Source of the DNA: Candidatus Omnitrophota bacterium
Lineage (GTDB): Bacteria > Omnitrophota > Gorgyraeia > Gygaellales > Profunditerraquicolaceae
Reading direction: 5' to 3'
NCBI GenBank assembly: GCA_963805065.1
Contig: CAWDSS010000010.1
Span: 1,048,359 to 1,112,358 of the forward strand
Length of the DNA stretch: 64,000 nt
In this document: positions 10,859 through 32,978 of the stretch, one piece after another
Numbering within the stretch: position 1 is the stretch's first letter
How the letters are laid out: the number at the start of each line of letters is the position of its first letter
Program-made: the position numbers and the translations under genes
The notes under the pieces: generated by a model
What the model saw: only the letters and a program-made list of their open reading frames with translations
Database searches by the model: none
What the model was told of the DNA's origin: nothing

Positions 10859-11368
10859 ATGAAGAAAAGTAATAAAATAATCTTGATTATTTGTGCCGCT
10901 GTTGTTATCGCCCTTGGAGCATGGCAGTTCTGGCTCATATTTAAGGCATGGCAGCGCACCAAAGAACAACTTGCAAGCCTTCAAATACAATATTATAAGA
11001 CAGCAGAGGAATTAGCCGATTCACAAAAACAAATAGATTCCCTGAATCAAAAAATTATCGGCTTTAAAAAGAATAATGCCAGGCTTTCACAAGATAAGCA
11101 GAGCCTGCAAGAAAAAGTAGCAAGTTTGACGCAGGAAAAACAAGCTATAGAAGCCAAACTTCATTCATTAAAAGACCTTAAACAGGCAATTCGACAGGTC
11201 AAGATAGAGATGCATGACCAGCGGGTTAAGCAATATCTTGCCAGGGAAGAACGGCAAAAAGCAATCGATGCTCAAGAGCTAGCTTTGGGTAACCGCGGGT
11301 TTATGATAAAAGACGCTCAATCCACCTATAAACCGTCGATTAGGATAGAAGTTAAGCCTGCACAATAA
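10859..11368 (+). CDS. Membrane-anchored coiled-coil protein (hypothetical)
   Basis: N-terminal TM (IILIICAAVVIALGAWQFWLIF) followed by a long heptad-like Q/K/E/L-rich stretch. No family recognised. Confidence 0.5.
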   Translation: MKKSNKIILIICAAVVIALGAWQFWLIFKAWQRTKEQLASLQIQYYKTAEELADSQKQIDSLNQKIIGFKKNNARLSQDKQSLQEKVASLTQEKQAIEAKLHSLKDLKQAIRQVKIEMHDQRVKQYLAREERQKAIDAQELALGNRGFMIKDAQSTYKPSIRIEVKPAQ

Positions 11369-11413
11369 CTTACTTATTCCGAAGTGTCGGGATTCGTAAG
11401 TTGTGCGCTCATT
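11360..11413 (+). repeat. Modular palindromic repeat, M3 module copy (overlaps the upstream stop codon)
   Basis: GCACAATAACTTAC ... GTAAGTTGTGC outer stem with an inner CCGA-AGTG-TCGG hairpin. Homologous to 15108-15156 and 24664-24716. Confidence 0.75.
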
Positions 11414-11460
11414 AATTACAGTTGATTTACTAATAATTTATGCTAAAATTATAATTTCCC

Positions 11461-12390
11461 ATGATAGATAAAAACAAGGTAAAAACATATTCCATTAAGC
11501 ATCGGGCGAGTAAAGTAGAAACTGGCGATTTTGCCAAGGCTCCCGCTAAAAGAATCGGTTTTTCTAAATTTTATGATGCCCTTCCGAATATACTAAAAGC
11601 TAAAGATTTACGTGAAGTTGTCAGTGTGGTTATAAAGGCTCATAAGGCCGGCAAATCCGTTATTTTTATGGCAGGGGCCCACGTGATAAAATGCGGGCTT
11701 AATCCCGTATTAATTGAGCTAATCAAAAGAAAAGTCTTAAGCTGTATCTGCCTTAACGGAGCAGGCATAATCCATGATTTTGAGATTGCTTTTCAAGCTA
11801 GGACTTCCGAAGACGTAGGCGAGAATTTAAAACAGGGAAAATTCGGCATGGCTAAAGAGACCGCCGATTTTATAAACAATGCCGCCATAGAAGGAGTTGA
11901 AGGAGGCTTAGGATTTGGCTATGCTGTGGCTAAAAAAATCGCCTATTCTAAACTCAAATATAAAAACTTAAGCCTGATATTTAATGCTTATAAATATAAA
12001 GTCCCGGTTTGCGTTTTTCTGGCCATAGGTACTGATATCATACATCAGCACCCGTCTTTTAATGCCCCGCTTAGCGCAGAGGGAAGCTTAAGGGATTTTT
12101 ATTCACTGGTTGAGAATACCGCCGGGCTAAATCAGGGCGGGGTGTTGATAAATTTTGGTTCCGCGGTAATATTGCCCGAGGTTTTCTTGAAGGCATTGAA
12201 TTTAAGCCGTAACCTCGGCAATGAAGTCAAGAATTTTACCACTGCAAATTTCGATATGATTTATCATTATCGTCCTTCGCAGAATATCGTAGCTCGGCCG
12301 GTAATGTCCGGAGGCAAAGGTTTTTATATTACCGGGCATCATGAGATAATGCTGCCTTTATTGGCGCAGGCGATCATAGAGAAGTTATAA
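11461..12390 (+). CDS. Conserved hypothetical, possibly deoxyhypusine-synthase-like (DHS-like NAD-binding fold)
   Basis: VIFMAGAHVIKCGLNPVLIELIKRKVLSCICLNGAGIIHDFE resembles the DHS pattern (G-l-r ... L-i ... V-d-x-i-v-t-T-a-G-x-i-e-x-D). Weak, pattern-level only. Confidence 0.4.
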   Translation: MIDKNKVKTYSIKHRASKVETGDFAKAPAKRIGFSKFYDALPNILKAKDLREVVSVVIKAHKAGKSVIFMAGAHVIKCGLNPVLIELIKRKVLSCICLNGAGIIHDFEIAFQARTSEDVGENLKQGKFGMAKETADFINNAAIEGVEGGLGFGYAVAKKIAYSKLKYKNLSLIFNAYKYKVPVCVFLAIGTDIIHQHPSFNAPLSAEGSLRDFYSLVENTAGLNQGGVLINFGSAVILPEVFLKALNLSRNLGNEVKNFTTANFDMIYHYRPSQNIVARPVMSGGKGFYITGHHEIMLPLLAQAIIEKL

Positions 12391-12403
12391 ATACAAGAAG
12401 CTT

Positions 12404-12431
12404 GTGTAATGTGTAAAGTGTAATGTATACA
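12404..12431 (+). repeat. Heptamer array GTGTAAT-GTGTAAA-GTGTAAT-GTATACA (intergenic)
   Basis: Read directly, upstream of the heptose kinase gene. Confidence 0.7.
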
Positions 12432-12441
12432 GAAATAAGCC

Positions 12442-13455
12442 ATGAAGAATCTTAAGAAAATAATAAGCCGTTTTAGTCATGCCAATGTCCTTGTAGTAGG
12501 AGATTTGATTTTAGACGAATATATCTGGGGTAATGTTGACAGGATCTCGCCTGAAGCGCCGGTACCTGTGGTTTGGGCAAACAAAAGGACATATGTGCCC
12601 GGCGGAGCAGCCAATGTGGCAAATAATATCCGTTCCCTAGATGCAAAAGTATGTTTGGTGGGAGTTGCCGGCGCAGATACAAACAGCGAAGTCCTATTCC
12701 ATGAGCTAAAGAAAAGAAATATTGATACAAGGGGTATATTTTGTCAGCCTCAAAGGCACACTACGTTAAAGAGCCGTATTATTGCCGGGCATCAGCAGGT
12801 AGTAAGAGTTGACTGGGAACACACAGACCCCTTGCCAAGGCAATTGAATGAACGGATTATTAAATTCCTGCAGAAGAATATCGCTGATTTTGATGCTGTG
12901 ATTATCGAGGATTATGGCAAGGGCGTAATAAATATGCACCTATTGGAGGAACTTATCGGGTTAGCGCTTAAGCATAACAAGATTATTGCGGTTGACCCCA
13001 AGGAAGAAAACTTTCAGTTCTATAAAAAAGTCACTTCCATTACCCCCAACCGCCGGGAATTGGAAAATGCCATAAGGAATTTGAAGATAAAAGATACCAC
13101 AAACAGGTTTAAGGTTAATAGCGACAAGCTGTTTAGCGATAAGGATATTGATTCTGCGGCCAGGCAAATCTTAGAGTATTTAAAACTTGAATCCATGCTG
13201 GTTACGTTGGGCGAGCACGGTATGAAACTATTCGAGAAAAACGGACGGATGACGCATATACCAACGGTCGCGCAGGAAGTTTTTGACGTTTCCGGAGCAG
13301 GGGATACGGTGATAGGGACATTTAGTTTAGGGCTGTGCTGCCGGGCAACTAAGCTTGAGGCAGCGCATATAGCGAATTTTGCCGCGGGTATAGTTGTAGG
13401 AAAAGTAGGGACTGCAGTTACTACAAGAAAAGAACTAATCGAAAGGTTGCCTTAA
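12442..13455 (+). CDS. hldA: D-glycero-beta-D-manno-heptose-7-phosphate kinase (RfaE/HldE domain I, stand-alone)
   Basis: VLVVGDLILDEYIWGNVDRISPEAPVPVV and DVSGAGDTV (ribokinase-family) motifs. No adenylyltransferase domain attached. Confidence 0.8.
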   Translation: MKNLKKIISRFSHANVLVVGDLILDEYIWGNVDRISPEAPVPVVWANKRTYVPGGAANVANNIRSLDAKVCLVGVAGADTNSEVLFHELKKRNIDTRGIFCQPQRHTTLKSRIIAGHQQVVRVDWEHTDPLPRQLNERIIKFLQKNIADFDAVIIEDYGKGVINMHLLEELIGLALKHNKIIAVDPKEENFQFYKKVTSITPNRRELENAIRNLKIKDTTNRFKVNSDKLFSDKDIDSAARQILEYLKLESMLVTLGEHGMKLFEKNGRMTHIPTVAQEVFDVSGAGDTVIGTFSLGLCCRATKLEAAHIANFAAGIVVGKVGTAVTTRKELIERLP

Positions 13456-14196
13456 ATGGAAGCAATCGGAGTAATACCAGCCAGGTACTCCTCAACCAGA
13501 TTTGAGGGAAAAGTTTTGGCAGATATCCTGGGTAAACCCATGATTCAGCACGTATGGGAACACGCAAAGCAGGCTTTGATACTGGATGACCTTATAATTG
13601 CCTGCGACGAAGAAATTGTTGCCGATGCCTGCCGTAAATTCAAGGCCAAGGTTGTAATGACTTCCAAAGGTCATACATGCGGCACAGACAGGATAATCGA
13701 AGTAGTGAATCCTTTAGATGCAAAAATAATCATAAACATACAGGCGGATGAGCCGTTAATTCATCCTATGATGATTGATTCGGTTGCCAGGGCGCTTTTG
13801 GATGATAAAAGCGTTTCCATGGCCACGATTATGAAAAAAATAGAGGATGTTTCAGAACTCAAGGATCCTAACGTAGTAAAAGTCGTGGTGGATAAAAATA
13901 ATTTTGCCTTGTATTTTTCCCGTGCCCCTATTCCGCATCGGGCACATAGTTCAGAGATACAGTCTCCGGCATACTTTAAACATATCGGGCTCTATGGTTA
14001 TACAAAAGATTTTCTTTTTACTTACAAAAATTTACCGGTTTCCAATCTAGAGAAAATAGAGAAGCTGGAACAGTTAAGAGTCCTGGAAGAAGGTTTTCGT
14101 ATCAAGGTTGTTGAGACGAAGTTTGATACAGTGGGAGTGGATACTCCTCAGGATTTGGAAAAGGCCAGGTCGTATTTAGAAAAGGAAAATTTATAA
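13456..14196 (+). CDS. kdsB: 3-deoxy-manno-octulosonate cytidylyltransferase (CMP-Kdo synthetase)
   Basis: IGVIPARYSSTRFEGKVLADILGKPMIQHV, NIQADEP and GVDTPQDL motifs. Confidence 0.9.
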   Translation: MEAIGVIPARYSSTRFEGKVLADILGKPMIQHVWEHAKQALILDDLIIACDEEIVADACRKFKAKVVMTSKGHTCGTDRIIEVVNPLDAKIIINIQADEPLIHPMMIDSVARALLDDKSVSMATIMKKIEDVSELKDPNVVKVVVDKNNFALYFSRAPIPHRAHSSEIQSPAYFKHIGLYGYTKDFLFTYKNLPVSNLEKIEKLEQLRVLEEGFRIKVVETKFDTVGVDTPQDLEKARSYLEKENL

Positions 14197-15032
14197 TGCG
14201 CCAGGTTAATGTAAAGAATATTTTGATAGGAGACAAGAACCCTTTGGTTTTAATCGCCGGGCCTTGCGTTATTGAATCAGAAAGGCTTTGTTTGGAGGCG
14301 GCTAAAAAAATCAAGGATATTGCCGTAAAATTAAATATCCCGTACATATTTAAATCCAGTTTTGATAAAGCAAACAGAATGTCAATTGATTCTTATCGCG
14401 GCCCGGGCATAAAAAAGGGCTTAGAGGTTTTGCATAAGGTAAAACAGCAATTAAAAGTACCCGTGTTAAGCGACATACACTGCCAGAGGGATATCCCGGA
14501 GGCAGCCGAAGTGTTGGATATAATTCAGATACCGGCGTTTCTCTGTCGCCAGACGGATATTGTAGTTGCTGCTGCCATGACAGGCAAGGTCGTAAATATT
14601 AAAAAAGGCCAATTCCTGGCTCCTTGGGATATACTGCCGATAATCAAAAAGATTGAATCCGCAGGAAATAAATCAATATTGATTACTGAGAGGGGATTTT
14701 GTTTCGGTTATAATAATCTAGTGACTGATTTTAGGAGTTTGCAGATAATGCGCGAGTTTGGTTACCCTGTAATTTATGACGCGACGCATAGCGTACAGCT
14801 TCCGGGAGGCAAAGGAAATACTTCCGGAGGGCAGCGGGAATTTGTGGAAGGACTTTCGCGCGCAGCAGTTGCCTTTGGCTGCGACGGCTTATTCCTGGAA
14901 GTGCATCCTGAGCCGGATAGTGCCCTTTGCGATGGGCCGAATATGATTAATTTGGCTGGCTTGGAAAAACTTTTGAAACAGCTTAAGAAGATAAGCGAAG
15001 CCATAACTTATGGAGCACGTAGTGCGACATAA
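14196..15032 (+). CDS. kdsA: 2-dehydro-3-deoxyphosphooctonate aldolase (Kdo8P synthase)
   Basis: LIAGPCVIES, FKSSFDKANR, DATHSVQLPGG and CDGPN motifs. The last ~9 codons and the stop lie in repeat module M1. Confidence 0.9.
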   Translation: MRQVNVKNILIGDKNPLVLIAGPCVIESERLCLEAAKKIKDIAVKLNIPYIFKSSFDKANRMSIDSYRGPGIKKGLEVLHKVKQQLKVPVLSDIHCQRDIPEAAEVLDIIQIPAFLCRQTDIVVAAAMTGKVVNIKKGQFLAPWDILPIIKKIESAGNKSILITERGFCFGYNNLVTDFRSLQIMREFGYPVIYDATHSVQLPGGKGNTSGGQREFVEGLSRAAVAFGCDGLFLEVHPEPDSALCDGPNMINLAGLEKLLKQLKKISEAITYGARSAT

Positions 15033-15166
15033 GTTATTTGGCTGAACTTACCCAGCACTAATTTTATTTTAGCTAAGCATTTATCAAAATTAGTGCTGGG
15101 TTAATTCGCACAATAACTTACTCATCCCGACACTTCGGGATTCGTAAGTTATGTGCTCATTTAAGA
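15002..15166 (+). repeat. Modular nested-palindrome repeat, full copy (modules M1+M2+M3)
   Basis: M1 at 15002-15037 (stem ATAACTTATG/CATAAGTTAT). M2 at 15044-15107 (perfect 16-bp stem ACCCAGCACTAATTTT/AAAATTAGTGCTGGGT). M3 at 15108-15156. Ends TTAAGA directly before the kdsD ATG. Confidence 0.85.
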
Positions 15167-16135
15167 ATGAAAATTAATTGCATAAAACGCGCAAAACAAG
15201 TTTTGGAAATCGAAGCCCAAGCAATTAAAGATTTGACATCCAGGGTCGGGAAAAATTTCCAAAAAGCCCTGGATATAATTTTAAAGACCAAGGGCAGAGT
15301 GGTAGTCAGCGGCATGGGAAAAACCGGTATTATCGCCCAAAAATTTTCTGCTACGTTAGCTTCTACCGGTACCCCCAGTTTATTTTTACATACTGCGGAA
15401 GCAATTCACGGAGACTTAGGAAAGGTCATTTGTGATGATGTGGTAATTATACTTTCTAACAGCGGCACAACTGAAGAGATGAAACAGCTCCTTCCTTTGT
15501 TAAGAAAGATCGGCTGTGGAATTATTGCCCTTACGGGCAATACTAAATCTATTCTTGCAAAATATAGCGATTGTGTATTGGACGTTTCAGTAAAAAAAGA
15601 AGCCTGTCCCTTAGGCTTGGCTCCTACTGCTTCTACTACTGCTACCCTCGCTATGTCAGACGCACTGGCAGTTTGCCTTTTGGAATGCAAGGGTTTTAAG
15701 GAAAAAGATTTTGCATTCTTTCATCCTGGCGGGGCATTGGGAAAGCGCCTGCTTTTAAAAGTAGAAGACATTATGCGTACCGGCACTGCCAATCCAATTG
15801 TGCATGAGGATAAAAAAGTTTCTCAGGTTCTATTGAAGATTACCCAGGCAAGGGCAGGGTCAGCTACCGTGGTGGATAAAAACGGAAAACTAAAAGGCAT
15901 TTTTACTGACGGGGATTTGCGCCGCCACCTGGAGGATGATGCTGATTTGCCCGGACGAAAGATTAAAGAAGTAATGACCAAGAATCCCACGGTGATTAAT
16001 AAAGATATGCTGGCTGCGCAAGCCATGCGAATTCTACAGGAAAAAAAGATTGACGAGCTACCGGTGGTTGATAATAATAAGCGGCCGGTAGGCCTGCTTG
16101 ACGTGCAGGATTTATTAAAGGCCGGTTTGATTTAA
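15167..16135 (+). CDS. kdsD: Arabinose-5-phosphate isomerase (SIS + tandem CBS)
   Basis: GRVVVSGMGKTGIIAQKFSATLASTG SIS motif and a C-terminal CBS pair. Confidence 0.9.
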   Translation: MKINCIKRAKQVLEIEAQAIKDLTSRVGKNFQKALDIILKTKGRVVVSGMGKTGIIAQKFSATLASTGTPSLFLHTAEAIHGDLGKVICDDVVIILSNSGTTEEMKQLLPLLRKIGCGIIALTGNTKSILAKYSDCVLDVSVKKEACPLGLAPTASTTATLAMSDALAVCLLECKGFKEKDFAFFHPGGALGKRLLLKVEDIMRTGTANPIVHEDKKVSQVLLKITQARAGSATVVDKNGKLKGIFTDGDLRRHLEDDADLPGRKIKEVMTKNPTVINKDMLAAQAMRILQEKKIDELPVVDNNKRPVGLLDVQDLLKAGLI

Positions 16136-18269: not shown

Positions 18270-18270
18270 C

Positions 18271-18343
18271 CACGGATGACACGGATTATGCACGGATTAC
18301 ACAGTCCAAAGGTATATCCGTGTAATCCGTGGTTAAATCCGTG
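18271..18343 (+). repeat. Triple CACGGAT / triple ATCCGTG symmetric array (long imperfect hairpin)
   Basis: CACGGAT at 18271, 18280 and 18291. Reverse complement ATCCGTG at 18316, 18325 and 18337. The inner 12 bp CACGGATTACAC/GTGTAATCCGTG are perfect. Confidence 0.8.
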
Positions 18344-18374
18344 CGATTGAGTAAAGACTAAGAGGACAGTGGTT

Positions 18375-19253: not shown

Positions 19254-19266
19254 TACGGAGGTGGAT

Positions 19267-21157: not shown

Positions 21158-22744
21158 ATGATTAAAATTTTAGTCAGTGATCAACTATCGGAAGAAGGGC
21201 TAAAGATATTGAAGGAAGTAAAAGAGTTTCAGGTGGACGTTTTGACGGAATTGAAACCCGAGGCATTAAAAGAAATAATTAAAGATTATGATGCGCTTCT
21301 TGTAAGGAGCGCCACCAAAGTAACCAAAGACATAATCAACGCCGCAGATAAATTAAAGGTCATTGGCCGCGCAGGCGTAGGTCTGGATAATGTTGACTTG
21401 GAGGCAGCTACGCAAAAAGGCATTATTGTAATGAATACTCCGGCGGGCAACACAATTTCTACCGCAGAGCATACCTTTAGCATGATTTTAGCGCTTTCCA
21501 GAAACATTGCCCAGGCTAATGCTTCCACGAAAAAAGGAGAATGGAAACGCTCAAAATTCATGGGAGTGGAGCTGTTTGAGAAGACGCTGGGGATTGTCGG
21601 ATTCGGAAGAATCGGCTCGGAAGTGGCAAAGCGCGCTAATTCATTCGGTATGAAGGTATTGGCGTTTGACCCCTTTTTGTCTAAAAAAATTGCTGAAGGT
21701 ATTGGTGTGGAAGTGGTGGAATTAAAAGATTTGCTCCAGCGCTCAGACTATATAACCGTGCATACGCCTCTTACAGAAGAAACAAAACACATGATATCAA
21801 CGAAAGAATTCGTATTAATGAAAAAAGGCGCCAGGATTATTAACTGTGCAAGAGGCGGCATAGTTGACGAAGCAGCCTTGGTGGAAGCTATCAAAGAAGG
21901 CAAAGTCGCAGGCGCTGCAATTGATGTCTTTGAAAAGGAGCCGGTAGATCCAAACAGTGAATTATTGAAATTGGAGAATGTGGTTACTACTCCGCACTTA
22001 GGGGCATCGACCGAAGAAGCGCAGGTAAATGTTGCGATTGAAGTGGCAGAGATTACCCGCGATGCGCTTTTGGGTAAAGGCATACGCAATGCTGCAAATT
22101 ATCCCTGCATAGAAGCAGAGGCCTGTAAATTCCTAGATCCCTACATTAACTTGGCGCAAAATTTAGGCTCATTTTCCAGCCAGTTGGTAGAGGGTCGATT
22201 CCAGGAATTAAATATAAGTTATAGCGGAGATATCGTGAAATACGATTTAGGTCCGCTCACTATGTCATTGGTTAAGGGAGTGCTTTCACCAATCTTAAAA
22301 GAAACGGTGAATTTCGTTAATGCAATTTCTTTAGCCCGCGAAAGAGGCATAAAGATAAGCGAAGCAAAATCAACCAACGAAGAGGAATTCGTAAATCTTA
22401 TCCAATTACAAATAAAAACCGACCAGGAAACCAGGGTAATTTCAGGCACGCTTTCTTCCAACAAGCAGCCGCGTATAGTAAAAATAGACAATTATTATGT
22501 TGAGCTTTCTCCCGTAGGAGAAATGATTTTTATACAGAATTGGGATAAGCCGGGTATTATCGGTGCTTTGGGTACACTTTTAGGCAAGCACGATATCAAT
22601 ATTGCTGCTATGACCTTTGGCCGCGATAAGCCGGGCGGAAGGGCTATAAGCGTATTAAACGTGGATAGTGTTATTTCAGCGGATATTTTGGATAAAATAA
22701 GAAAAACAGAGAATGTATTAGGAGCTAAGGTGGTAAAACTATGA
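21158..22744 (+). CDS. serA: D-3-phosphoglycerate dehydrogenase (with C-terminal ACT domain)
   Basis: GIVGFGRIGSEVA NAD motif and the ARGGIVDE/TPHLGAST catalytic region. About 528 aa, long form. Confidence 0.9.
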   Translation: MIKILVSDQLSEEGLKILKEVKEFQVDVLTELKPEALKEIIKDYDALLVRSATKVTKDIINAADKLKVIGRAGVGLDNVDLEAATQKGIIVMNTPAGNTISTAEHTFSMILALSRNIAQANASTKKGEWKRSKFMGVELFEKTLGIVGFGRIGSEVAKRANSFGMKVLAFDPFLSKKIAEGIGVEVVELKDLLQRSDYITVHTPLTEETKHMISTKEFVLMKKGARIINCARGGIVDEAALVEAIKEGKVAGAAIDVFEKEPVDPNSELLKLENVVTTPHLGASTEEAQVNVAIEVAEITRDALLGKGIRNAANYPCIEAEACKFLDPYINLAQNLGSFSSQLVEGRFQELNISYSGDIVKYDLGPLTMSLVKGVLSPILKETVNFVNAISLARERGIKISEAKSTNEEEFVNLIQLQIKTDQETRVISGTLSSNKQPRIVKIDNYYVELSPVGEMIFIQNWDKPGIIGALGTLLGKHDINIAAMTFGRDKPGGRAISVLNVDSVISADILDKIRKTENVLGAKVVKL

Positions 22745-24510
22745 ATAGAAAAGTAAAAAGTAAAAAGCCAAAAGTAAAAAGTTTTGTTATTTTGATTTCA
22801 TTTGTCATTTGTACTTTGTGTTTTGTCATTGGCGTAGCAAATGCTAAGGAAATAGCAATCATCTACTCCGGACAGACCCACGCCATGATTTATCCCTGCA
22901 GTTGTCCTTTTGACCCCGAAGGCGGAGTTGCACGCAGGGCAACCGTGGTTAAACAGATACGAAAAGAATATCCCGATAACCTGCTTTTAGATTCCGGAGA
23001 TTTCTTTGCTGGAGGACTGATGGATGAATACACGCAAAATACCCAGCTTGACATCCAGCGTTCACTGGTAAATCTTAGGGCAATGGAGTTGATGAAATAT
23101 GACGCCGCAGCAATAGGTGACGACGAATTTAATTTCGGCAGCAAAATTTTGCGGGAGAATATTGCCAAGACGAAATTAACCTTTTTATCCTGCAATTTAA
23201 AATCCGACAAAGTATCTTCCTCTATGATTAAAGAAGTCTCTGGGGTAAAAATCGGCATTATCGCAGTAACTACGGTTTTGGCAAAACAAAAATCCGACGA
23301 CCTCGAATTTAATGATCCTAAAAGTGCAGTTTACACGGCAGTAGAAAATCTGCATAAGCAAAATGTAAATATTATTATAGTCTTAAGCCATTTGGCAGAA
23401 AACGAAAGCCTGAATTTGATTAATGATGTAGGGGGAATAGATATTTTAATCGAAGGCCATAGCGCGGCAAATAATAAGGAACCATCTACTAAGATAGGCA
23501 ATACCTTAGTGTTAAGGCCCTCTTGGGAGGGTAAGAGCCTGCAGGCCTTAATTCTTTCGGTTGAAGGCGATAAAATAAAGACATACAAACTTAGAGAGAG
23601 TAAATTATCGAATGCGGTTGCCGATGACCCGCAAATTATTTCTATATTACCCAAATGTTTTTCTGACAATAATTGTAAAAAAGAAGGGTTTGTGGGTTTA
23701 TGTAAAGACCCCGGAGATTTAAAATCCCGGTGTATTTTTAACAAAGCCAATCAGGTGAAGTTATTAATTGTTACGCCTAAAGATTGCCTTGTTTGCGAGA
23801 CAGCACCTATCTCGGATTTCTTAAAGAGGCAATTTCCCGGCTTAAGCATTTCTTACATGTATTATCCTGATAAACGCGTAAACTCACTTATAAAGGATTT
23901 TAACGTCACGGGACTACCGGCTTATTTTCTGGGAAAAGAAGTAGAAATGGAAGGAAATTTTAATGCCCTGAAAGGAAACTTAACGCTAAAAGGGCAATAT
24001 TATATGGTTGCGCCTTATTTTAGCGGGTTCTCTTATTTTTTAAACAGGCAGAAACAAAAAGGAAAATTGGACTTATTTTTAAGCTTGTTTGATAAAGCTA
24101 CGCCACAGCTTTTGACAGTTATAAAGGAATTCAATCCTCAAATACATTTTCTGGCAATTGAGGAATCAGGTAAGTTCGATGCAGCTTCGGGTAGAAGAGA
24201 AGTTGAGGAAGATATGCGTGCAGTATGTGTGCAACAATACTACCCAAAGCATTTCTGGGATTATATCAGCTGCAGGTCAAACAATATCGATAGTTCATGG
24301 TGGGAGGATTGCGCGCAAGGCATTGATTTAAGTAAAATTTTTACATGCGCCAGGGGAAACGAAGGATATTCTTTGTTGAAGGCAAATACCGCAATCACCA
24401 AAGAAGCCCACATCATGATGGGTCCGGCTTATTTACTGGATAACCTTGAAATATTCAGCTCTAGGGGTGCTCCTTCTAAGGATGAACTTAAGAAAATAAT
24501 AAAGAGGTAA
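22741..24510 (+). CDS. Exported 5'-nucleotidase/metallophosphoesterase-like protein with degenerate metal motifs; Cys-rich C-terminal half
   Basis: DSGDFFAG, IGDDEFNFG (in place of GNHEFD), VLSHLA and ILIEGHS align to calcineurin-like phosphoesterase motifs. The signal peptide is encoded by heptamer repeats. Confidence 0.45.
   Translation: MNRKVKSKKPKVKSFVILISFVICTLCFVIGVANAKEIAIIYSGQTHAMIYPCSCPFDPEGGVARRATVVKQIRKEYPDNLLLDSGDFFAGGLMDEYTQNTQLDIQRSLVNLRAMELMKYDAAAIGDDEFNFGSKILRENIAKTKLTFLSCNLKSDKVSSSMIKEVSGVKIGIIAVTTVLAKQKSDDLEFNDPKSAVYTAVENLHKQNVNIIIVLSHLAENESLNLINDVGGIDILIEGHSAANNKEPSTKIGNTLVLRPSWEGKSLQALILSVEGDKIKTYKLRESKLSNAVADDPQIISILPKCFSDNNCKKEGFVGLCKDPGDLKSRCIFNKANQVKLLIVTPKDCLVCETAPISDFLKRQFPGLSISYMYYPDKRVNSLIKDFNVTGLPAYFLGKEVEMEGNFNALKGNLTLKGQYYMVAPYFSGFSYFLNRQKQKGKLDLFLSLFDKATPQLLTVIKEFNPQIHFLAIEESGKFDAASGRREVEEDMRAVCVQQYYPKHFWDYISCRSNNIDSSWWEDCAQGIDLSKIFTCARGNEGYSLLKANTAITKEAHIMMGPAYLLDNLEIFSSRGAPSKDELKKIIKR
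22747..22830 (+). repeat. 12-heptamer block (5 A-rich xAAAAAG-type, then 7 T-rich TTTGNNN-type) encoding the signal peptide
   Basis: AGAAAAG TAAAAAG TAAAAAG CCAAAAG TAAAAAG | TTTTGTT ATTTTGA TTTCATT TGTCATT TGTACTT TGTGTTT TGTCATT. 84 nt = 28 codons (RKVKSKKPKVKSFVILISFVICTLCFVI). Confidence 0.85.
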
Positions 24511-24726
24511 GTGAGGACATAATTTATGGAGCGAACACCCGGCTTTATCGGAACAGCCGGTGTGCCGCTTGTGCGGCAAGCGAACATAAATTATTCGTCC
24601 GAACTTACCCAGCACTAATTTTGATAACAATAGACTAAAAGAAAATTAGTGCTGGGTTAAATTCGCACAATAACTTATGTCGGAGAATAGAAATTAATGC
24701 TCCATAAGTTATGTGCTCATTTAAGA
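24511..24726 (+). repeat. Modular nested-palindrome repeat, expanded copy (M1 with extra inner hairpins, M2, M3)
   Basis: GAGGACATAATTTATGG...ATAAATTATTCGTCC. M2 stem identical to copy A (24607-24622/24642-24657). M3 GCACAATAACTTATG...CATAAGTTATGTGC. Ends TTAAGA before the RBS and ATG 24736. Confidence 0.85.
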
Positions 24727-24735
24727 GGTGATTAT

Positions 24736-25974
24736 ATGGCTGACAAACCAAAGATTTATCTTATCGACGTAACTAACCGCGACGGAGTGCAGACTTCGCG
24801 CATATGCCTGTCTAAATTACAGAAGACCATGATTAATATTTACCTGAATGAAATGGGCGTATTTCAGTCGGAGTTTGGATTTCCCGTAACCCGCCACGAA
24901 ACAAATTACCTGAACGCAAACCTTGAATTAGTCAAAATGGGCGCACTTTCTCCCATCAGGTTAAGCGGCTGGATCAGGGCAACCAAGGAGGATGTATTAA
25001 CAGCATTCCATTTGGTTGCGCAAATCAAGCACCTAAACCTTTCCATTTCTACATCAGACCAGATGATTATGCATAAATTTAAGGGGAAGCTTGACCATGG
25101 GTCTGTAATACAGGAAATGACAGAAGCTGTTAAAGAGGCGCGTAAATTGAAAGCTGATTGCATTGGCGTAAACGCAGAAGATGCATCCCGCACCAGAATG
25201 GATTATTTAATTGAATTCGCCTTGGCAGCTAAAGAAGCGGGCGCCGACCGGATCCGTTATTGCGATACATTAGGATGCGATACGCCCTTTTCGATTTACG
25301 AAAGGATAAAACTTTTGGCGCAAGCCGTGAAAATGCCTATTGAAATTCATTGCCACAATGATTTGGGATTGGTAGTGGCTAATTCGATTGCCGGAGCAAA
25401 AGCAGCAATTGATGTCGGGTGCGATACCTATATAAATACCTGTGTAAACGGAATGGGTGAGCGCGCAGGAAACGCAGATTTAGTTTCAGTGATGCTGGCG
25501 CTAAAATACGGCAGCGGCATGCAGGATTATCGTTTAGATGAAAGGGTAAACTTCAAAATGGCCTGGAAGATATGTAAATATGCTTCTTATGCTTTCGGAG
25601 TGCCCATACCTATAAACCAGCCAGGCGTGGGGGCAAACGCATTTGCCCACGAATCGGGAATCCACGCAGACGGGGCATTAAAAGACAGGCGAAATTATGA
25701 GCTTTATGATTTTGAGGAACTGGGCAGGGGTGAGCCTGAAATAATTGAAACCGGCCGAAAGATCACCGCCGGAGAATACTCCGGAATAAAGGGTTTTCGA
25801 AATGTTTATGAAAAGCTGGAAGTGGTTTTTCGCGACGATGAAGAAGCCACAAAGGTGCTGGAATTAGTCAGGTATGCCAATGTCCATAATCAAAAGCCCC
25901 TGGTTGATGAGGAACTAAAGTTTATCGCTACGTATCCTGATATAGCGCGTAAAATATTCACCATGATACCGTAA
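24736..25974 (+). CDS. HMGL-like aldolase family enzyme (homocitrate / 2-isopropylmalate / citramalate synthase-like)
   Basis: IDVTNRDGVQT, HCHNDLGLVVANS and AHESGIH motifs. Start moved to ATG 24736 (AGAGG RBS). No LeuA dimerisation domain evident. Confidence 0.7.
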   Translation: MADKPKIYLIDVTNRDGVQTSRICLSKLQKTMINIYLNEMGVFQSEFGFPVTRHETNYLNANLELVKMGALSPIRLSGWIRATKEDVLTAFHLVAQIKHLNLSISTSDQMIMHKFKGKLDHGSVIQEMTEAVKEARKLKADCIGVNAEDASRTRMDYLIEFALAAKEAGADRIRYCDTLGCDTPFSIYERIKLLAQAVKMPIEIHCHNDLGLVVANSIAGAKAAIDVGCDTYINTCVNGMGERAGNADLVSVMLALKYGSGMQDYRLDERVNFKMAWKICKYASYAFGVPIPINQPGVGANAFAHESGIHADGALKDRRNYELYDFEELGRGEPEIIETGRKITAGEYSGIKGFRNVYEKLEVVFRDDEEATKVLELVRYANVHNQKPLVDEELKFIATYPDIARKIFTMIP

Positions 25975-25976
25975 TT

Positions 25977-27387
<1,411 letters not shown>

Positions 27388-27403
27388 GTAGGACATAAAC
27401 TAC

Positions 27404-27432
27404 TTGACTAAATTTATTGGTTGTGTTATAGT
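27404..27432 (+). promoter_or_regulatory. Candidate sigma70-type promoter TTGACT-17 nt-TATAGT
   Basis: TTGACT at 27404-27409, 17-nt spacer, TATAGT at 27427-27432. About 47 nt upstream of an AGGAGG-led ATG at 27480. Confidence 0.5.
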
Positions 27433-27479
27433 TAAACTCCACTCTAAAATATCAAAAATATAGACAGGAGGCAATTACC

Positions 27480-28133: not shown

Positions 28134-28158
28134 TTAAATTACATAATAAGAGGTAAAC

Positions 28159-28551: not shown

Positions 28552-28584
28552 AAGGGAGGAAAAGAACAAAGTTCAAGTTCTTTG

Positions 28585-28609
28585 AAAAGGGGATAAAATC
28601 CCCTTTTTT
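28585..28609 (+). terminator. Rho-independent terminator
   Basis: AAAAGGGGA-TAAAA-TCCCCTTTT stem-loop (9 bp) running into a T tract. Confidence 0.65.
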
Positions 28610-28625
28610 ATTGAGGCCACAACTT

Positions 28626-28671
28626 TAAGATTGAAAAATAAATGTCATCGATTCGTGCAAGGATCCAATTC
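28626..28671 (+). repeat. Partial copy of the variant M2 module (loop and right arm only)
   Basis: TAAGATTGAAAAATAAATGTCATCGATTCGTGCAAGGATCCAATTC closely matches 32931-32978. The left stem arm is absent. Confidence 0.7.
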
Positions 28672-28694
28672 ACGCTCAATAAAGGAGGTGTACT

Positions 28695-29711
28695 ATGGCA
28701 ATATTACGTAAGTTAAAAGAGAAGCTGAAAAGAATTTCAGAGAAAAAACTTAGTTTGAAAAATTACGTATCTAAATCCGCAAAGCCCAGGCAACACGAGG
28801 AAGCCAAGAAAGAAATTTTAGGAGTCCGCGAGACGGCAATTGAACAGTCTAAATTTTCACATCCCGAGGTGACGCGGCCGCGAAAGTTTATGCCCGAAGA
28901 CCTGCCTTATCAATATGAGAAAGACAGGATTATCCTGCAGGTGCGCGATACCAGATGGCTGCATGCATATTGGGAGGTAAGGGGCGCGACTTTCGAAAGG
29001 CTAAAGAGTGAATTTAACCAGGATTTTTACAATTCCAAAATGATTCTTAGGGTTTATGACGTAAGCCAGATAATATTTAACGGGCTTAATGCCCACAGGT
29101 TTTTTGACATACAGGTGAATGATTTTGCCAATAACTGGTACATTGATACAGGTGGCCCTGGCAGGTCTTGGTGCGTAGACTATGGCTTGCTCTTATCCGA
29201 CGGAAGATTTATTACGATAGTGCGTTCTAATACCGTGCATACTCCACTTGAAGGCCCTTCCTGGATTACCGACGAAGAATGGATGATCCCGGACGATATG
29301 TTTGCACGCCTTTATGGCATGGGGTTTGGCCTCGGACAAAGTTCTCCTGTCGGAAAAGCCTGGCAGGAAAGGGTGAAGCAGGTATTATTCTCGGGAGTTT
29401 TTGCTTCTCCCGGAATGGCCTCAATGGCCAGCCCCGTTAAGAAAGCAGCCAAGGAAAGAAAATTCTGGTTAAAGGTTGATTGCGAACTGATTGTATACGG
29501 AGCGACCGAGCCTGATGCAAAAGTTACTGTGCAGGATAAACCAATTAGATTACGCTCGGATGGCACATTTACATTGAGGTTTGCGCTGCCGGACGGAAAA
29601 CAAGTAATACCTGTAAAAGCAGTATCTTCAGACGATATCGAAGAGCGCACCATTACTCCTATAGTTTCCAGAGAAACCAAAAGCAGCTCACTAATCAAAT
29701 CCCAGGTTTAA
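28695..29711 (+). CDS. DUF4912 domain protein
   Basis: DRIILQVRDTRWLHAYWEV motif. This family is commonly found next to GH57 glucan enzymes. Confidence 0.6.
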   Translation: MAILRKLKEKLKRISEKKLSLKNYVSKSAKPRQHEEAKKEILGVRETAIEQSKFSHPEVTRPRKFMPEDLPYQYEKDRIILQVRDTRWLHAYWEVRGATFERLKSEFNQDFYNSKMILRVYDVSQIIFNGLNAHRFFDIQVNDFANNWYIDTGGPGRSWCVDYGLLLSDGRFITIVRSNTVHTPLEGPSWITDEEWMIPDDMFARLYGMGFGLGQSSPVGKAWQERVKQVLFSGVFASPGMASMASPVKKAAKERKFWLKVDCELIVYGATEPDAKVTVQDKPIRLRSDGTFTLRFALPDGKQVIPVKAVSSDDIEERTITPIVSRETKSSSLIKSQV

Positions 29712-29714
29712 AAA

Positions 29715-31295
29715 ATGCATAAAGGATACCTTTGTTTGGTTCTGCACGGGCACCTCCCGTTTGTGCGTCACCCGGAACATGAAGACTTTCTGGAGGAGGA
29801 CTGGTTTTATGAAGCGATAACCGAGACATATATCCCTCTGATATCGGTTTTTGAGGGTTTGATTAATGACGGGATAGATTTCAGGGTCACTATGACTTTA
29901 AGCCCTACATTAATCTCCATGCTGACGGATCCTTTGCTTCAGGGACGCTACATAAAACACATCCATAAACTGATTGAATTAGCGCATAAAGAGATTGAGA
30001 GAACAAGTTGGCAGCCGCAATTCCAGCACTTGGCAATAATGTACCTCAATGAATTCTGCAAGGCGCGCGATATTTTTGAAAAGTACGGCCGTAACCTAAT
30101 CAACGCTTTCAAAAAATTTCAGGATCTGGGTAAACTTGAAATTGTTACTTGCGCTGCTACGCACGGATATTTTCCTCTCATGGATGTATGTAGGGAATCC
30201 GTGAGGGCGCAGGTCAAGGTTGCAGTGAGCCACTACGAGAGTGTATTCGGGAAAAAGCCAAAAGGTATATGGCTGCCTGAATGCGGGTATCAGCCTGGCC
30301 ATGATGAAATTTTAAAAGAATGCGGCATACGTTATTTCTTTACCGATTCCCATGGCGTATTGCACGGTACACCCCGCCCTAAATACGGCGTGTTTGCTCC
30401 GGTTTACTGCCGGGGAACCGGTGTAGCTTGTTTTGCCAGAGACCTGGAGTCTTCTAAACAGGTTTGGTCATCAATTGAAGGTTACCCCGGAGATTATAAC
30501 TACCGGGAATTTTACAGGGATATCGGTTTTGATTTAGAATTTGATTATATAAAGCCTTATATTCATCCTGACGGCGTAAGGATAAATACCGGAATAAAAT
30601 ATTACCGTATCACAGGCACCGGGAATAATAAAGAGCCTTATATTCCCCAGTGGGCAAAGGACAGGGCGGCTGATCATGCGGGAAACTTTATGTTTAACCG
30701 TCAAAGGCAGATAGAATATTTATATGATTTTATGGGTAAGAAACCCATTATCGTTTCTCCTTATGATGCAGAGCTGTTCGGGCATTGGTGGTATGAGGGT
30801 CCGAAGTGGATTGATTTTCTTGCCAGAAAGATCGCCTGCGATCAGGATGAGATAAGCATGATTACGCCTTCTGAGTATTTAGTTTCGAACCCGCGTAACC
30901 AGGTGATAACTCCCTCATTGTCAAGCTGGGGATGGAAAGGTTACAGCGAAATGTGGCTCCAGGGTGCGAATGACTGGATTTACAAGCACCTGCATGTAGC
31001 ATCGGAAAGAATGACCGAGTTGGCAAAGAGTAATCAAAACACAAACGGTTTACACAAAAGAGCACTTAATCAGGCATTGAGAGAATTACTCCTCGCTCAA
31101 AGCTCTGATTGGGCATTTATAATGGGTACCGGTACGCATACCAGTTACGCCGTACGCCGCACAAAAGACCATCTCTTAAGGTTTACACGCCTCTATGAAG
31201 AGATAAAATCAAATTCTATTGATGAAGATTGGCTTGCTGATATCGAATACAAAGATAATTTATTCCCGAATATAGATTACCGGGTTCATCAATAA
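29715..31295 (+). CDS. GH57-family 1,4-alpha-glucan branching enzyme
   Basis: GYLCLVLHGHLPFVRHPE, WLPECGY and SPYDAELFGHWWYEG motifs. Confidence 0.8.
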   Translation: MHKGYLCLVLHGHLPFVRHPEHEDFLEEDWFYEAITETYIPLISVFEGLINDGIDFRVTMTLSPTLISMLTDPLLQGRYIKHIHKLIELAHKEIERTSWQPQFQHLAIMYLNEFCKARDIFEKYGRNLINAFKKFQDLGKLEIVTCAATHGYFPLMDVCRESVRAQVKVAVSHYESVFGKKPKGIWLPECGYQPGHDEILKECGIRYFFTDSHGVLHGTPRPKYGVFAPVYCRGTGVACFARDLESSKQVWSSIEGYPGDYNYREFYRDIGFDLEFDYIKPYIHPDGVRINTGIKYYRITGTGNNKEPYIPQWAKDRAADHAGNFMFNRQRQIEYLYDFMGKKPIIVSPYDAELFGHWWYEGPKWIDFLARKIACDQDEISMITPSEYLVSNPRNQVITPSLSSWGWKGYSEMWLQGANDWIYKHLHVASERMTELAKSNQNTNGLHKRALNQALRELLLAQSSDWAFIMGTGTHTSYAVRRTKDHLLRFTRLYEEIKSNSIDEDWLADIEYKDNLFPNIDYRVHQ

Positions 31296-31363
31296 AATTC
31301 ATCGGGTCTATAATGCATAGTCCATAGACCTCTGGCCCGTAGCTTATAAGTTTCTACCATTAT

Positions 31364-32080
31364 ATGATTGATAAAGATAAATTACCTGAACACGTAGCGA
31401 TAATCATGGATGGCAATGGCCGCTGGGCACAGGAGCGCAGATTGCCCAGGACAGCGGGGCACCGCGAAGGGATAGCCAGAGTCAGGGAGATTGTTGAATG
31501 CGGCCGTGAATTAGGCATAAAGATAATCACGCTGTTTGCATTCTCTGCAGAAAATTGGAGCAGGCCAAAAAATGAAATAAATATGTTGATGCGTTATTTA
31601 AATAATTTTTTAGACCGCGAAGTAGCTAGATTACACAAAAATAATATTAAATTTCTGGTTATCGGCAGGAAAGAGCCGATGCCTAAGAACATACAGGAAA
31701 AAATCAGAAAAGCAGAAGAAAAAACAAAAGATAACTCCCGGATGACCTTGGCTTTGGCATTAAATTATGGTTCAAGGCAGGAGATTGTGGATGCTGTAAA
31801 AAAAATTGCCCTGGCAGTGCTTGAGGATAAAGCCGCTATTTCGGATATCAATGAGGATACGTTCGGCAGTTATCTTTATACGGCAGGCCTTAAAGACCCG
31901 GACCTGTTAATCCGCACGAGCGGTGAGATGCGCATAAGTAACTTTTTGCTCTGGCAACTTTCCTATGCCGAGTTGTGTTTCCCCAGGAAATATTGGCCTG
32001 ATTTTAAAAAGAGCGATTTTAAAAAGGCAATTGAAGAATACCAAAACAGGGAAAGAAGATTTGGTAGGGTAAATGCTTAA
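31364..32080 (+). CDS. uppS: Undecaprenyl diphosphate synthase
   Basis: HVAIIMDGNGRWA, FAFSAENWSRP and IRTSGEMRISNFLLWQ motifs. Confidence 0.95.
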   Translation: MIDKDKLPEHVAIIMDGNGRWAQERRLPRTAGHREGIARVREIVECGRELGIKIITLFAFSAENWSRPKNEINMLMRYLNNFLDREVARLHKNNIKFLVIGRKEPMPKNIQEKIRKAEEKTKDNSRMTLALALNYGSRQEIVDAVKKIALAVLEDKAAISDINEDTFGSYLYTAGLKDPDLLIRTSGEMRISNFLLWQLSYAELCFPRKYWPDFKKSDFKKAIEEYQNRERRFGRVNA

Positions 32081-32867
32081 TAAAAGAGTAATCAGCGCAA
32101 GCGTCTTAACAGCGATTATTATCGCAAGCGTATTTAATGCCTGGTTGTTTAGTATTGCCATTACTTTTTTCATAGTAATGGGCCTGTATGAATTCTTTAC
32201 GATGTTAGAGAATAAGGGCATCTTAATTTACAAATATTTCGGTATTGGTATGGGTGCAATAATACCCATCTCCATATTAACGCGTTTTGAACCAACGAAA
32301 AAGTGGGAACTTTTATTTATTGTTTTAACAGTATTGTTCTTGATAATGATGCAGTTTAAACGCAGGCAGAATTCAGGAGTAATCGTAGACATCTCTACTA
32401 CGTTCTTCGGTATTCTTTATGTTTCCTGGTTCTTGAGTTTCTTAATTAAGATAAGAAGCCTTGCCGGCGGGATAGGTTTATTGGGCCTGGTTTTACTGGC
32501 GACAAAATTAGGCGACATCGGAGCCTACCTTGTTGGTTCGCGTTTTGGTAAGACTCCCCTAATGCCGCGCATCAGCCCTAAGAAATCTGTTGAGGGGGCC
32601 ATAGGCGGTTTATTGTTTAGTATTTCGGGTGCGTTGGCAAGCAAGGCTTTTACGGGTTTTAGTTACCCGCATCTTTTATTAATCGGATTTTCTTTAGGCA
32701 TATTAGGGCAACTGGGAGATCTTTCCGAATCTTTGATGAAGCGCGATTGTCAGGTTAAGGATTCCGGAAATATTCTGCCTGGTCTGGGTGGAATCTTAGA
32801 CCAACTCGACAGCCTTTTGTTTACCGCCCCTGTATTTTATTTTTACTTAAGCATTATCTTAAGATGA
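32073..32867 (+). CDS. cdsA: Phosphatidate cytidylyltransferase
   Basis: Polytopic membrane protein with the C-terminal signature SESLMKRDCQVKDSGNILPGLGGILD. Confidence 0.85.
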   Translation: MLNKRVISASVLTAIIIASVFNAWLFSIAITFFIVMGLYEFFTMLENKGILIYKYFGIGMGAIIPISILTRFEPTKKWELLFIVLTVLFLIMMQFKRRQNSGVIVDISTTFFGILYVSWFLSFLIKIRSLAGGIGLLGLVLLATKLGDIGAYLVGSRFGKTPLMPRISPKKSVEGAIGGLLFSISGALASKAFTGFSYPHLLLIGFSLGILGQLGDLSESLMKRDCQVKDSGNILPGLGGILDQLDSLLFTAPVFYFYLSIILR

Positions 32868-32978
32868 GGACATAACTTATGGAGCACATAGTGCGACATA
32901 AGTTATCCGTCCGAACTTATCCTTGACACGTAAGATTCAAAAATAAATGTCATCGAATTCGTGTCAAGGATCTAATTC
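32865..32978 (+). repeat. Modular nested-palindrome repeat (M1 plus variant M2 with a different stem)
   Basis: M1 nearly identical to 15002-15037. M2 keeps the flanks GAACTTA...TAATTC but has the stem ATCCTTGACACG/CGTGTCAAGGAT (32919-32930/32960-32971). Confidence 0.85.

Follow-up and report, generated by a model that had tools for sequence, protein, structure and literature searches.

Mosaic palindromic elements at gene boundaries of Candidatus Omnitrophota: base pairing, polarity and turnover

A 64,000-nucleotide stretch of a Candidatus Omnitrophota genome (GCA_963805065.1, contig CAWDSS010000010.1, positions 1,048,359 to 1,112,358 of the forward strand; hereafter the window) carries a family of nested palindromic repeats at five gene boundaries, which we call loci A to E (Table 1). 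Base pairing constrains this family, its placement is polar relative to genes, and it has been gained and lost at orthologous junctions, so that it is mobile or at least subject to fast turnover. The explanation that we favour, at a probability of about 0.6, is that its members are non-autonomous, mosaic palindromic elements specific to Candidatus Omnitrophota and mobile in the manner of bacterial interspersed mosaic elements (BIMEs) and hairpin-forming doublets of repetitive extragenic palindromes (REPINs), or of Correia elements. Such an element would spread as DNA, its inverted units being the ends recognised by a trans-acting enzyme, and its insertion would be tolerated only where one of these ends re-creates a stop codon and the other leaves the start region undisturbed. 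Within an operon it would be co-transcribed and give rise to very stable hairpins flush with the cistron ends, whose probable effect is to protect or delimit mRNA ends and to hold the A/U-rich start region free of pairing.

The Omnitrophota, a phylum of very small bacteria with compact genomes, occur worldwide and have not been cultured, and to our knowledge almost nothing is known of the organisation of their gene expression. Among the genomes sampled here, the elements fill a sizeable share of the scarce intergenic space. The family is apparently undescribed so far. No Rfam family reached its gathering score over the whole window, a search of locus B at an E-value threshold returned only far-sub-threshold microRNA-like hairpin matches, and no account of such a family was found in full-text searches of the literature on Omnitrophota repeats, hairpins or mobile elements.

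The hairpin unit and its distribution

An earlier reading of the window from its sequence alone (the sequence-only reading) had described, at the five loci, a modular family of nested palindromes built from three hairpin modules, M1, M2 and M3. All five loci read as described, and the existence of a modular family at gene boundaries, well beyond chance expectation, is confirmed. The modules are of two types only, however: M1 is the M3 unit in reverse orientation, and M2 is an exchangeable linker. The unit itself is about 54 nt long. Its 3-bp foot is joined through a UC x UC internal loop to a 4-bp basal stem; a 5' bulge of 1-2 nt separates this from a stem of 9-10 bp (ATAACTTAY/RTAAGTTAT), above which lie a further UC x UC loop and an apical hairpin that varies. 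The consensus is AAUUC-GCRC-NN-AUAACUUAY-(0-2 bp)-UC-[variable stem-loop]-UC-(0-2 bp)-RUAAGUUAU-GYGC-UCAUU. A covariance model of this unit (R1), built from aligned units of the M3 type, gave five strong matches in the window, three on the plus strand and two on the minus strand, with the next best match at E ~1 or worse; in all, six units were recognised in the 64 kb. The M1 copies of loci B and E reached 43.0 and 53.2 bits when read on the minus strand, compared with 21.4 and 23.4 bits on the plus strand, and the M1 of locus C is the same unit enlarged by a nested insert of 58 nt. RNA folding of the composite loci gave z-scores against shuffled sequences of -12.1 (locus B), -10.4 (locus C) and -6.3 (locus E), and the motif ATAACTTATG, with at most one mismatch, occurred 21 times against an expectation of 7.0 +/- 2.8.

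Base pairing within the unit is conserved while its sequence varies. In a MAFFT alignment of 59 units, one basal pair appears as A-U in 28, G-C in 27 and G-U in 4 units, one stem pair as U-A in 46 and C-G in 11, and the pair at the top of the stem as C-G in 41 and U-A in 15. Among the 150 best R1 matches, many of which do not match the 17-mer used for sampling (see below), 95.6% of the cells are paired, compared with 78.6% in shuffles and 21-46% in slid registers, although this alignment leans toward structure because it was fitted to R1. The compensatory changes that the sequence-only reading had proposed looking for were found as double changes at 13 of the 16 stem pairs in these 150 model-aligned units; the covariation is very strong, and the core hairpin structure is conserved. 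Whole arms also vary in a compensatory manner (GTGACTTA/TAAGTCAC, CAAACTTA/TAAGTTTG and ATAAGTTA/TAACTTAT). Head and tail covary as well, AATTC occurring with TCATT in 116 units and AGTTC with TCACT in 26, with a single mixed case, which lengthens the stem by three pairs across a second UC x UC loop.

The sequence-only reading had further pointed to a flipped apical loop. The loop CACT of locus B is indeed the exact reverse complement of AGTG at locus A, on nearly identical stems, and no further flip was seen among 22 unit pairs with identical apical stems. Template switching would be a plausible origin of this flip; as the flip was seen once only, it is a reading of one event.

For the distribution of the unit, one genome per species was scanned with the exact 17-mer TAAGTTRTGYGCTCATT, the right end of M3. 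The 17-mer matches at least 119 genome stretches, about 100 of which hold a complete hairpin of M3 layout with the 17-mer as its right arm, and complete units are present in at least 74 species-level assemblies. Judged by the titles of 74 assemblies among the matches listed, 58 are Omnitrophota/Omnitrophica, 11 are 'Planctomycet*' metagenome-assembled genomes (MAGs) and 5 are other. The matches in clearly unrelated taxa (13) and in viral contigs (12), which serve as a control for chance matches, included none with a hairpin unit. A scan with a covariance model had likewise been proposed by the sequence-only reading; R1 yielded 206 matches in 698 kb of Omnitrophota loci.

Placement at gene boundaries and turnover among relatives

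The unit occurs in two flavours, F (AATTC..GCRC..GYGC..TCATT) and R (AGTTC..GGAC..GTCC..TCACT), which occupy different sides of genes. F tails lie at a gene start in 58 cases and at a gene end in 13 (17 non-coding, 26 ambiguous), and R tails lie at a gene end in 15 cases and at a gene start in none (3 non-coding, 8 ambiguous). The R tail is always TCACT followed by TA, which reads TAAGTGA on the gene strand, and the third base of the stop codon is the first base of the R unit on that strand. Where both flavours occur together they form a composite of inverted unit, linker hairpin and unit, with the heads (GAACT / AATTC) toward the linker and the tails outward, usually in the order stop codon, inverted R, linker, F and then a ribosome-binding site (RBS) or ATG. 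In all 21 R-linker-F composites, which are 126-254 nt long, R sits at the stop codon of the upstream gene, and the ends of the composite form terminal inverted repeats (TAAGTGAGGAC... and ...GTGCTCATTWAA). The composite is one large palindrome made of three small ones in predicted folds, and locus C is predicted to fold as one long hairpin. Other arrangements were also seen among the loci of relatives that were compared, which carry L-numbers. Tandem arrays of two or three linker-F repeats in the same orientation, with a period of about 92-127 nt, are present in L043 (6139-6446), L015 (4536-4771), L150 (5767-5873) and L039 (503-722). In L048 (about 3560-3670) the 3' end of a tRNA replaces the linker hairpin (..GGGGTCA|TTAATTC-F-TCATTaaATG of glmS), and in L119 a tRNA begins 3 nt past the F tail.

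The linker hairpin beside the F head always has a CCC/GGG base and is flanked by GAACTTA and TTAATTC. Several classes can be distinguished: a CCCAGCACTAAT-type (11 units, including loci B and C), a CCTTGACA-type (at least 7 units in other species, together with locus E), a CCCCGCC-type (11 units), a CCCCACAC-like class (17 units) and a long structured class ending in CTTCGGGAT (at least 19 units). The copy at 32865 (locus E) had been singled out for a stem swap that preserved structure rather than sequence. Its perfect 12-bp stem is real, but since the classes recur across species the swap is an exchange of linker class, and compensatory evolution is ruled out because both stems belong to distinct linker classes found in several species. 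Solitary hairpins of linker type (CCCGCACCTTCT...AGAAGGTGCGGG) occur exactly at the ATGA overlap of kdsA and kdsD in L133, L142, L148, L151, L181 and L183, where the 3' arm supplies an RBS-like AAGGTG and a new GTG start for kdsD. With the RBS sequestered in the stem and the 5' foot touching the kdsA stop codon, this arrangement looks like enforced translational coupling.

The distance from the F tail to the start codon is bimodal among 75 starts. In 32 of them an RBS is flush with the F tail and the start follows at 8-20 nt (mode 14), and in 41 the start lies at most 6 nt from F (modes 2 and 4), with no room for an RBS. The close starts are genuine, as Pfam profiles align from residue 1-5 (trigger factor, TIM, S10, L18 and S7), and GlmS behind F starts with MCGIIGY. 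Nine of 70 genes directly downstream of F encode ribosomal proteins (L11, L10, S10, L18, L20, S8, S11, S7 and S16). Ribosomal proteins make up about 3% of bacterial genes, so they are enriched after F, although choosing the loci by an exact 17-mer may have inflated this figure. Other genes that follow F encode EF-Tu, RRF, RpoC, SecY, SecG, trigger factor, GroEL, enolase, TPI, PFK, ATP-synthase subunits and, twice, GlmS. Locus E lies inside a uppS-cdsA-dxr-rseP array and other units lie inside ribosomal-protein operons, which implies that the elements are co-transcribed with their neighbours. Consensus scans of the window for sigma-70 promoters (-35/-10 hexamers spaced by 16-18 nt) and intrinsic terminators (a G+C-rich stem ahead of a U-tract) found 53 promoter-like sites (46 +/- 7 in shuffles) and 20 terminator-like sites (20 +/- 5 in shuffles), with no plus-strand site of either kind on any module, and the linker stems are followed by UUAAUUC, not by a U-run. 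A classical intrinsic terminator (GGGGAT-AAA-ATCCCC, then T6) is present just upstream of locus D at 28586-28610; the consensus scanner missed it, probably since A/T pairs extend the stem into the T-run.

Comparison of synteny, also suggested by the sequence-only reading, revealed insertion polymorphism among relatives (L051, L060, L100, kdsA|kdsD and lptB|tig). Two genes overlap at 60600-60650 of the window without an element; the orthologous junction carries R-linker-linker-F in L051 and an element in the other orientation in L100. The junction at 24511-24726 is filled in the window and empty in L060. In a metagenome scan with KdsD, 80 relatives were recovered at 66-89% amino-acid identity, 70 of them with both kdsA and kdsD. 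The two genes show a 4-nt ATGA overlap in 46 of these 70 relatives and at most 15 nt in 9 more, leaving 55 without a larger insert; the other 15 have differing inserts of 20-194 nt, and the composite of the window is present in none of the 70. The 358 kb of these relatives contain 10 units (about 1 per 36 kb), compared with 6 in the 64-kb window. Between lptB and tig, the 35 relatives compared range from no insert up to about 250 nt, filled by units in either orientation or by other hairpins. Relatives that have an element and those that lack it share one order of flanking genes. The lptB|tig junction of the window itself (18270-18340), which is a hot spot for units in relatives, holds an unrelated strong hairpin (ccacggattacacgg...ccgtgtaatccgtgg, about -40 kcal/mol).

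Traces at the flanks accompany this turnover. Around linker-F copies at six loci (L004, L009, L116, L080, L041 and L086) the flanks form direct repeats of 14-23 nt, compared with at most 11 nt in control windows. These include duplicated tRNA ends (the 5' end in L004, L009 and L116 and the 3' end in L080) and one RBS with a GTG start. Within a species the two copies match exactly, even when the tRNA sequence itself varies from one species to another. TAA is found on both sides of 14 of the 21 composites and may be part of the element's consensus ends.

Loci and other repeats in the window

The plus strand carries all plausible genes of the window (about 58 open reading frames (ORFs) of 150 aa or more), and their junctions mostly overlap or span less than 20 nt, an extremely co-directional and compact layout in which the five loci occupy the few sizeable intergenic gaps. 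Genes were called by simple ORF logic and identified by Pfam profile matches. The window shows kb-scale DNA similarity of 65-77% to loci in Omnitrophota MAGs and single-amplified genomes, which places it in this phylum, and a scan of it for tRNA and tmRNA genes found none. The features of the five loci are collected in Table 1.

Table 1. Repeat features of the window (positions are those of the window)
Feature	Position	Strand	Basis
Locus A, solo F-type hairpin unit	11355-11413	+	R1 34.0 bits, E 1.1e-7
Locus B, gene-end unit (M1 of the sequence-only reading)	14994-15048	-	R1 43.0 bits on minus, 21.4 on plus
Locus B, linker hairpin, class a	15044-15107	.	sequence and fold; flanks GAACTTA / TTAATTC
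Locus B, F-type unit	15103-15161	+	R1 61.8 bits, E 1.9e-16
Locus C, R-type gene-end unit	24510-24605	-	unit finder; AGTTC GGAC .. GTCC TCACT on minus strand
Locus C, linker hairpin, class a	24601-24664	.	sequence; repeat family D6
Locus C, F-type unit	24660-24721	+	R1 58.4 bits
Locus D, decayed linker, class b	28626-28680	+	alignment with locus E; sequence
Locus E, R-like gene-end unit	32863-32917	-	R1 53.2 bits on minus, 23.4 on plus
Locus E, linker hairpin, class b	32913-32978	.	sequence and fold; flanks GAACTTA / CTAATTC
Locus E, AATTCATGCAAATAAA at the expected F position (putative)	32974-32990	+	inferred from likeness to locus D only
Heptamer hairpins	25975-26108, 54469-54567, 56857-56962		
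Heptamer half-arrays	7149-7195, 22733-22801, 50956-51010, 58886-58938		

The unit of locus A, placed just after the stop codon of the ORF at 10859-11368, has a degenerate head (AGCCT in place of AATTC) and one U.G and one A.C mismatch in its stems. At locus B, kdsA (ORF 14196-15032, DAHP_synth_1/KdsA) reads through the inverted unit, which has an R-like tail (TAAGCGAAGCC) and supplies the final 12 codons of the gene together with its stop (14997-15032), the TAA at 15030-15032 lying in the right arm of the unit. The 16-bp linker stem (15050-15065 paired with 15086-15101, ACCCAGCACTAATTTT) is present in 11 units, other species included. This 16-bp stem, given for M2 in the sequence-only reading, is identical at locus C, where 24607-24622 pairs with 24642-24657 and the loop differs. 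The F unit of locus B, laid out as AATTC GCAC A ATAACTTAC / apical hairpin / GTAAGTTAT GTGC TCATT, ends 5 nt before the ATG of kdsD (15167) with no RBS between; KdsD has SIS and CBS domains in Pfam.

Locus C lies between an unannotated 589-aa ORF (22741-24510), whose stop TAA ends on the first base of the R unit, and an HMGL-like synthase gene (HMGL-like Pfam match). The arm of this R unit is the compensatory variant ATAATTTAT/ATAAATTAT, and its apical region holds a nested insert of 58 nt. This two-hairpin module (GCCGCACAAGCGGC + ACCGGC...GCCGGGT; 24529-24584 in the window) also occurs in L109 (about 1716-1835) and L029 (24-105), and its conservation in other species shows that the nesting goes one level deeper than was first described. 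The F unit is followed by TAAGAGGTG, an RBS, and then by the ATG at 24737; the longest-ORF start at 24697 lies inside the F unit and is false, the later start being supported by the ortholog in L060, where the junction is empty. The right end of the unit had been placed next to the kdsD start and just upstream of the HMGL-like RBS, and both placements hold. The false ATG and the element-encoded C-terminus of KdsA exemplify how these elements shift gene calls.

Locus D (28626-28671 in the sequence-only reading, which counted it as a copy of the family) is related to the linker of locus E, its loop and right arm being about 85% identical, but it is decayed, with a degenerate left arm. The linker is followed by AATTCACGCTCAAT, an RBS and the ATG of a DUF4912 gene at 28695, and AATTCACGCTCAAT is possibly an F unit with a collapsed hairpin. 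Locus E separates cdsA from dxr (ATG 32999). The stop TGA of cdsA (32865-32867; CdsA Pfam match) lies within the tail of the inverted unit (GATGAGGAC), and in the linker 32919-32930 pairs with 32960-32971 to form the 12-bp stem ATCCTTGACACG. After the linker, loci D and E share AATTCAYGC..AAT, which may be, as the shared letters suggest, an F unit with its hairpin deleted.

The window also contains a second, unrelated group of palindromes, A/T-rich long hairpins built of heptamers, (CAAAAGN)n in the left arm and (NCTTTTG)n in the right. Two of them have predicted folding energies of -36 and -25 kcal/mol. They fill other gene gaps, for example the one right after the HMGL-like gene, and a similar A-rich heptamer run stands ahead of the units in L043. 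Tandem GGTTCTG heptamers occur at 47333-47391 and 50028-50058, apparently in or at the start of the ORFs 47312-48445 and 49462-50667.

Weighing the explanations and comparison with known systems

The mobile-element explanation accounts for elements that come and go between genes of unchanged order, and it has a further point in its favour. The asymmetric features of the unit (the 5' bulge and the TC x TC loops) are the same in unit orientation for R and F; as transcription reads R and F in opposite senses, a factor that recognises inverted ends at the DNA level fits better than a single RNA-binding factor. Several findings weigh against this explanation. No transposase or parent element was found in 1.2 Mb searched. 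In the same 1.2 Mb, tblastn with IS608 TnpA and the E. coli REP-associated tyrosine transposase (RAYT) gave no match at E < 0.2, which is a weak test, and outward-facing unit pairs 260-4500 nt apart appear, from their coordinates, to be chance combinations from neighbouring junctions. The 14-23-nt duplications are unlike those of any standard transposase, and target-site duplication is ambiguous, as TAA is perhaps the element's own consensus end. With all genes of the window on one strand, polarity with respect to transcription is inseparable from polarity with respect to replication. Such strong sequence conservation over so many species is unusual for selfish repeats, and so is strict polarity, which hints at a host function, as do the starts 2-4 nt after F without an RBS and the enrichment before genes for ribosomal proteins and other highly expressed products.

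The main rival, possible though less likely, is that the family is primarily a host RNA device punctuating cistron boundaries, with mobility secondary. The inverted R would then form a hairpin at the mRNA 3' end, immediately adjoining the stop codon, the A/U-rich single-stranded spacers GAACUUA and UUAAUUC beside the linker would be endonuclease sites, and F would be a 5'-terminal hairpin that stabilises the downstream mRNA, insulates the start and permits initiation without an RBS. The polarity of F and R, the bimodal distance from F to the start codon with its genuine starts lacking an RBS, the ribosomal-protein, EF-Tu, RpoC, GroEL, SecY and glycolysis genes downstream, the sequence conservation across 74 species and the great stability of the hairpins are all consistent with such a device. 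G.U prevails over A.C mismatches on the sense strand in ascertained F units (13:2), which would suit such a device, but the ratio is 2:5 in non-ascertained F units (1:2 in R). Moreover, the same junctions lack an insert in most close relatives, so that any RNA-level role is dispensable; the mRNA faces differ (GA x GA and a 3' bulge in R, UC x UC and a 5' bulge in F), which one RNA-binding factor could not read alike; and the enrichment may stem from exact 17-mer picking or from an insertion bias toward transcribed DNA. An RNA-level role, in mRNA-end protection or processing or in insulation of the start region, is nonetheless plausible, mainly because 41 of the 75 starts lie so close to F without an RBS, often on ribosomal-protein genes; it may be merely an added layer. 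More speculatively, and in our estimate unlikely, the units would be recognition signals of a phylum-wide gene-boundary system, in which a conserved host factor cuts or binds the feet, so that long co-directional gene arrays yield individually stabilised mRNAs, and F licenses efficient starts without an RBS. Starts 2-4 nt after the F foot on genes for ribosomal proteins, EF-Tu, GlmS and trigger factor would reflect such licensing, and spread by an unconventional route, such as replication template switching or an RNA-mediated one, would copy 14-23 nt of the target, making the family a domesticated or mutualistic punctuation code and not junk.

Two other possibilities have much less to commend them. 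F might be a portable promoter, with TAAGTT of the right arm as the -10 element and transcription starting in the TCATT tail to give very short leaders. Such leaders would account for the starts that lack an RBS and for the position ahead of tRNA and highly expressed genes. TAAGTT does match TAnnnT, start codons follow the tail at 2-20 nt and, in L119, the 5' end of a tRNA follows it at 3 nt, and the downstream genes are highly expressed. We consider this improbable, a weak rival only, because the consensus counts equal those of shuffles and no site falls on a module. In addition, the right arm covaries with the left (TAAGTCAC, TAAGTTTG and TAACTTAT), which indicates that pairing and not -10 identity is selected, apical inserts of 6-60 nt would shift any -35 element, R units share the arms yet never face a gene start, and many copies lie inside operons where a promoter is needless. 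Folded single-strand recombination sites similar to integron attC, shuffling genes as cassettes, would likewise be imperfect palindromes with an extrahelical bulge, unpaired internal loops and a variable terminal structure at the boundaries of co-oriented arrays. The attC core is RYYYAAC/GTTRRRY, which the arms ATAACTTAY/RTAAGTTAT do not fit; the flanking genes (kdsA, kdsD, cdsA, dxr and ribosomal-protein genes) are conserved, syntenic housekeeping genes; each junction has two inverted units and not one site per gene; and no integrase was found among about 80 proteins scanned. Conserved gene order and the non-matching core effectively rule this possibility out.

Whichever explanation holds, the ends of the elements merge precisely with stop codons and lie right against start codons, and they do so within ribosomal-protein operons too. 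As selfish DNA they would be unusually long-lived and precisely adapted bacterial repeats, and a good system for the study of mobile DNA in streamlined genomes; if functional, they would represent a new punctuation of polycistronic mRNAs and initiation without an RBS. R1 is usable as a lineage marker, and the repeats displace the predicted starts and stops of genes and may cause metagenome assemblies to break at gene boundaries.

By analogy, the architecture of the family is closest to BIME/REPIN mosaics and Correia-type miniature elements, and other systems share single features with it. Integron attC sites are likewise bulged folded palindromes with an unpaired spacer and a variable terminal structure, conserved in structure over sequence and situated between co-oriented genes, but their core differs, and the genes flanking the Omnitrophota units are fixed housekeeping genes and not cassettes, with no integrase among the proteins scanned. 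The RNase III hairpins of T7 early genes, the ompA 5' untranslated region and REP 3' stabilisers are also stable hairpins at polycistronic cistron boundaries; these are single-copy, locus-specific signals, whereas the Omnitrophota family is a dispersed repeat, to which an RNA-level role can be assigned by analogy only. Miniature inverted-repeat transposable elements share terminal inverted repeats and presence/absence polymorphism at orthologous sites, but no parent insertion sequence with a transposase was found here in the 1.2 Mb, unit pairs being judged by coordinates. BOX elements of Streptococcus pneumoniae (boxA-boxB-boxC) and ERIC/IRU elements of enterobacteria are modular or long imperfect intergenic palindromes that are transcribed, have stable folds and lack a known mobilising enzyme, as is the case here. 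They have no sequence relationship to the Omnitrophota family and do not systematically adjoin stop and start codons without a gap, and the BOX modules do not represent a single unit placed in either orientation.

Correia elements of Neisseria (CREE/NEMIS) are miniature elements of about 100-160 nt with inverted ends at gene boundaries, presence/absence polymorphism, co-transcription and long hairpins, which in Neisseria are cut by RNase III with altered mRNA stability. Their ends, however, are not self-folding units but simple inverted repeats of 26 bp, accompanied by a TA duplication; they have neither exchangeable linker cassettes nor strict polarity, and they are restricted to a genus. The REP/BIME/REPIN-RAYT systems of Enterobacteria and Pseudomonas resemble the Omnitrophota family in being multi-copy intergenic imperfect palindromes, in combining alternating or inverted units with few conserved linker motifs (a likeness of architecture only, without homology to the BIMEs of E. 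coli), in forming inverted doublets able to fold into one long hairpin, as the 21 composites here, and in being co-transcribed with flanking genes and vertically persistent. Di Nocera et al. (2013; PMC3733652) describe REP palindromes as carrying at one end a conserved tetranucleotide tag, GTAG or CGTC. Neither tag occurs at the foot of the Omnitrophota unit, where the ends are those of the two flavours (116 and 26 units), and, at about 54 nt compared with 20-40 nt for REP, this unit is both longer and more elaborate. No RAYT gene was found in 1.2 Mb with the E. coli RAYT query. Unlike REP and BIME units, the two flavours are polar and tied to gene ends and starts, with termini that fuse with the stop codon or abut the start codon. 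REP sequences usually differ between genera, whereas one Omnitrophota unit sequence is conserved in at least 74 species.

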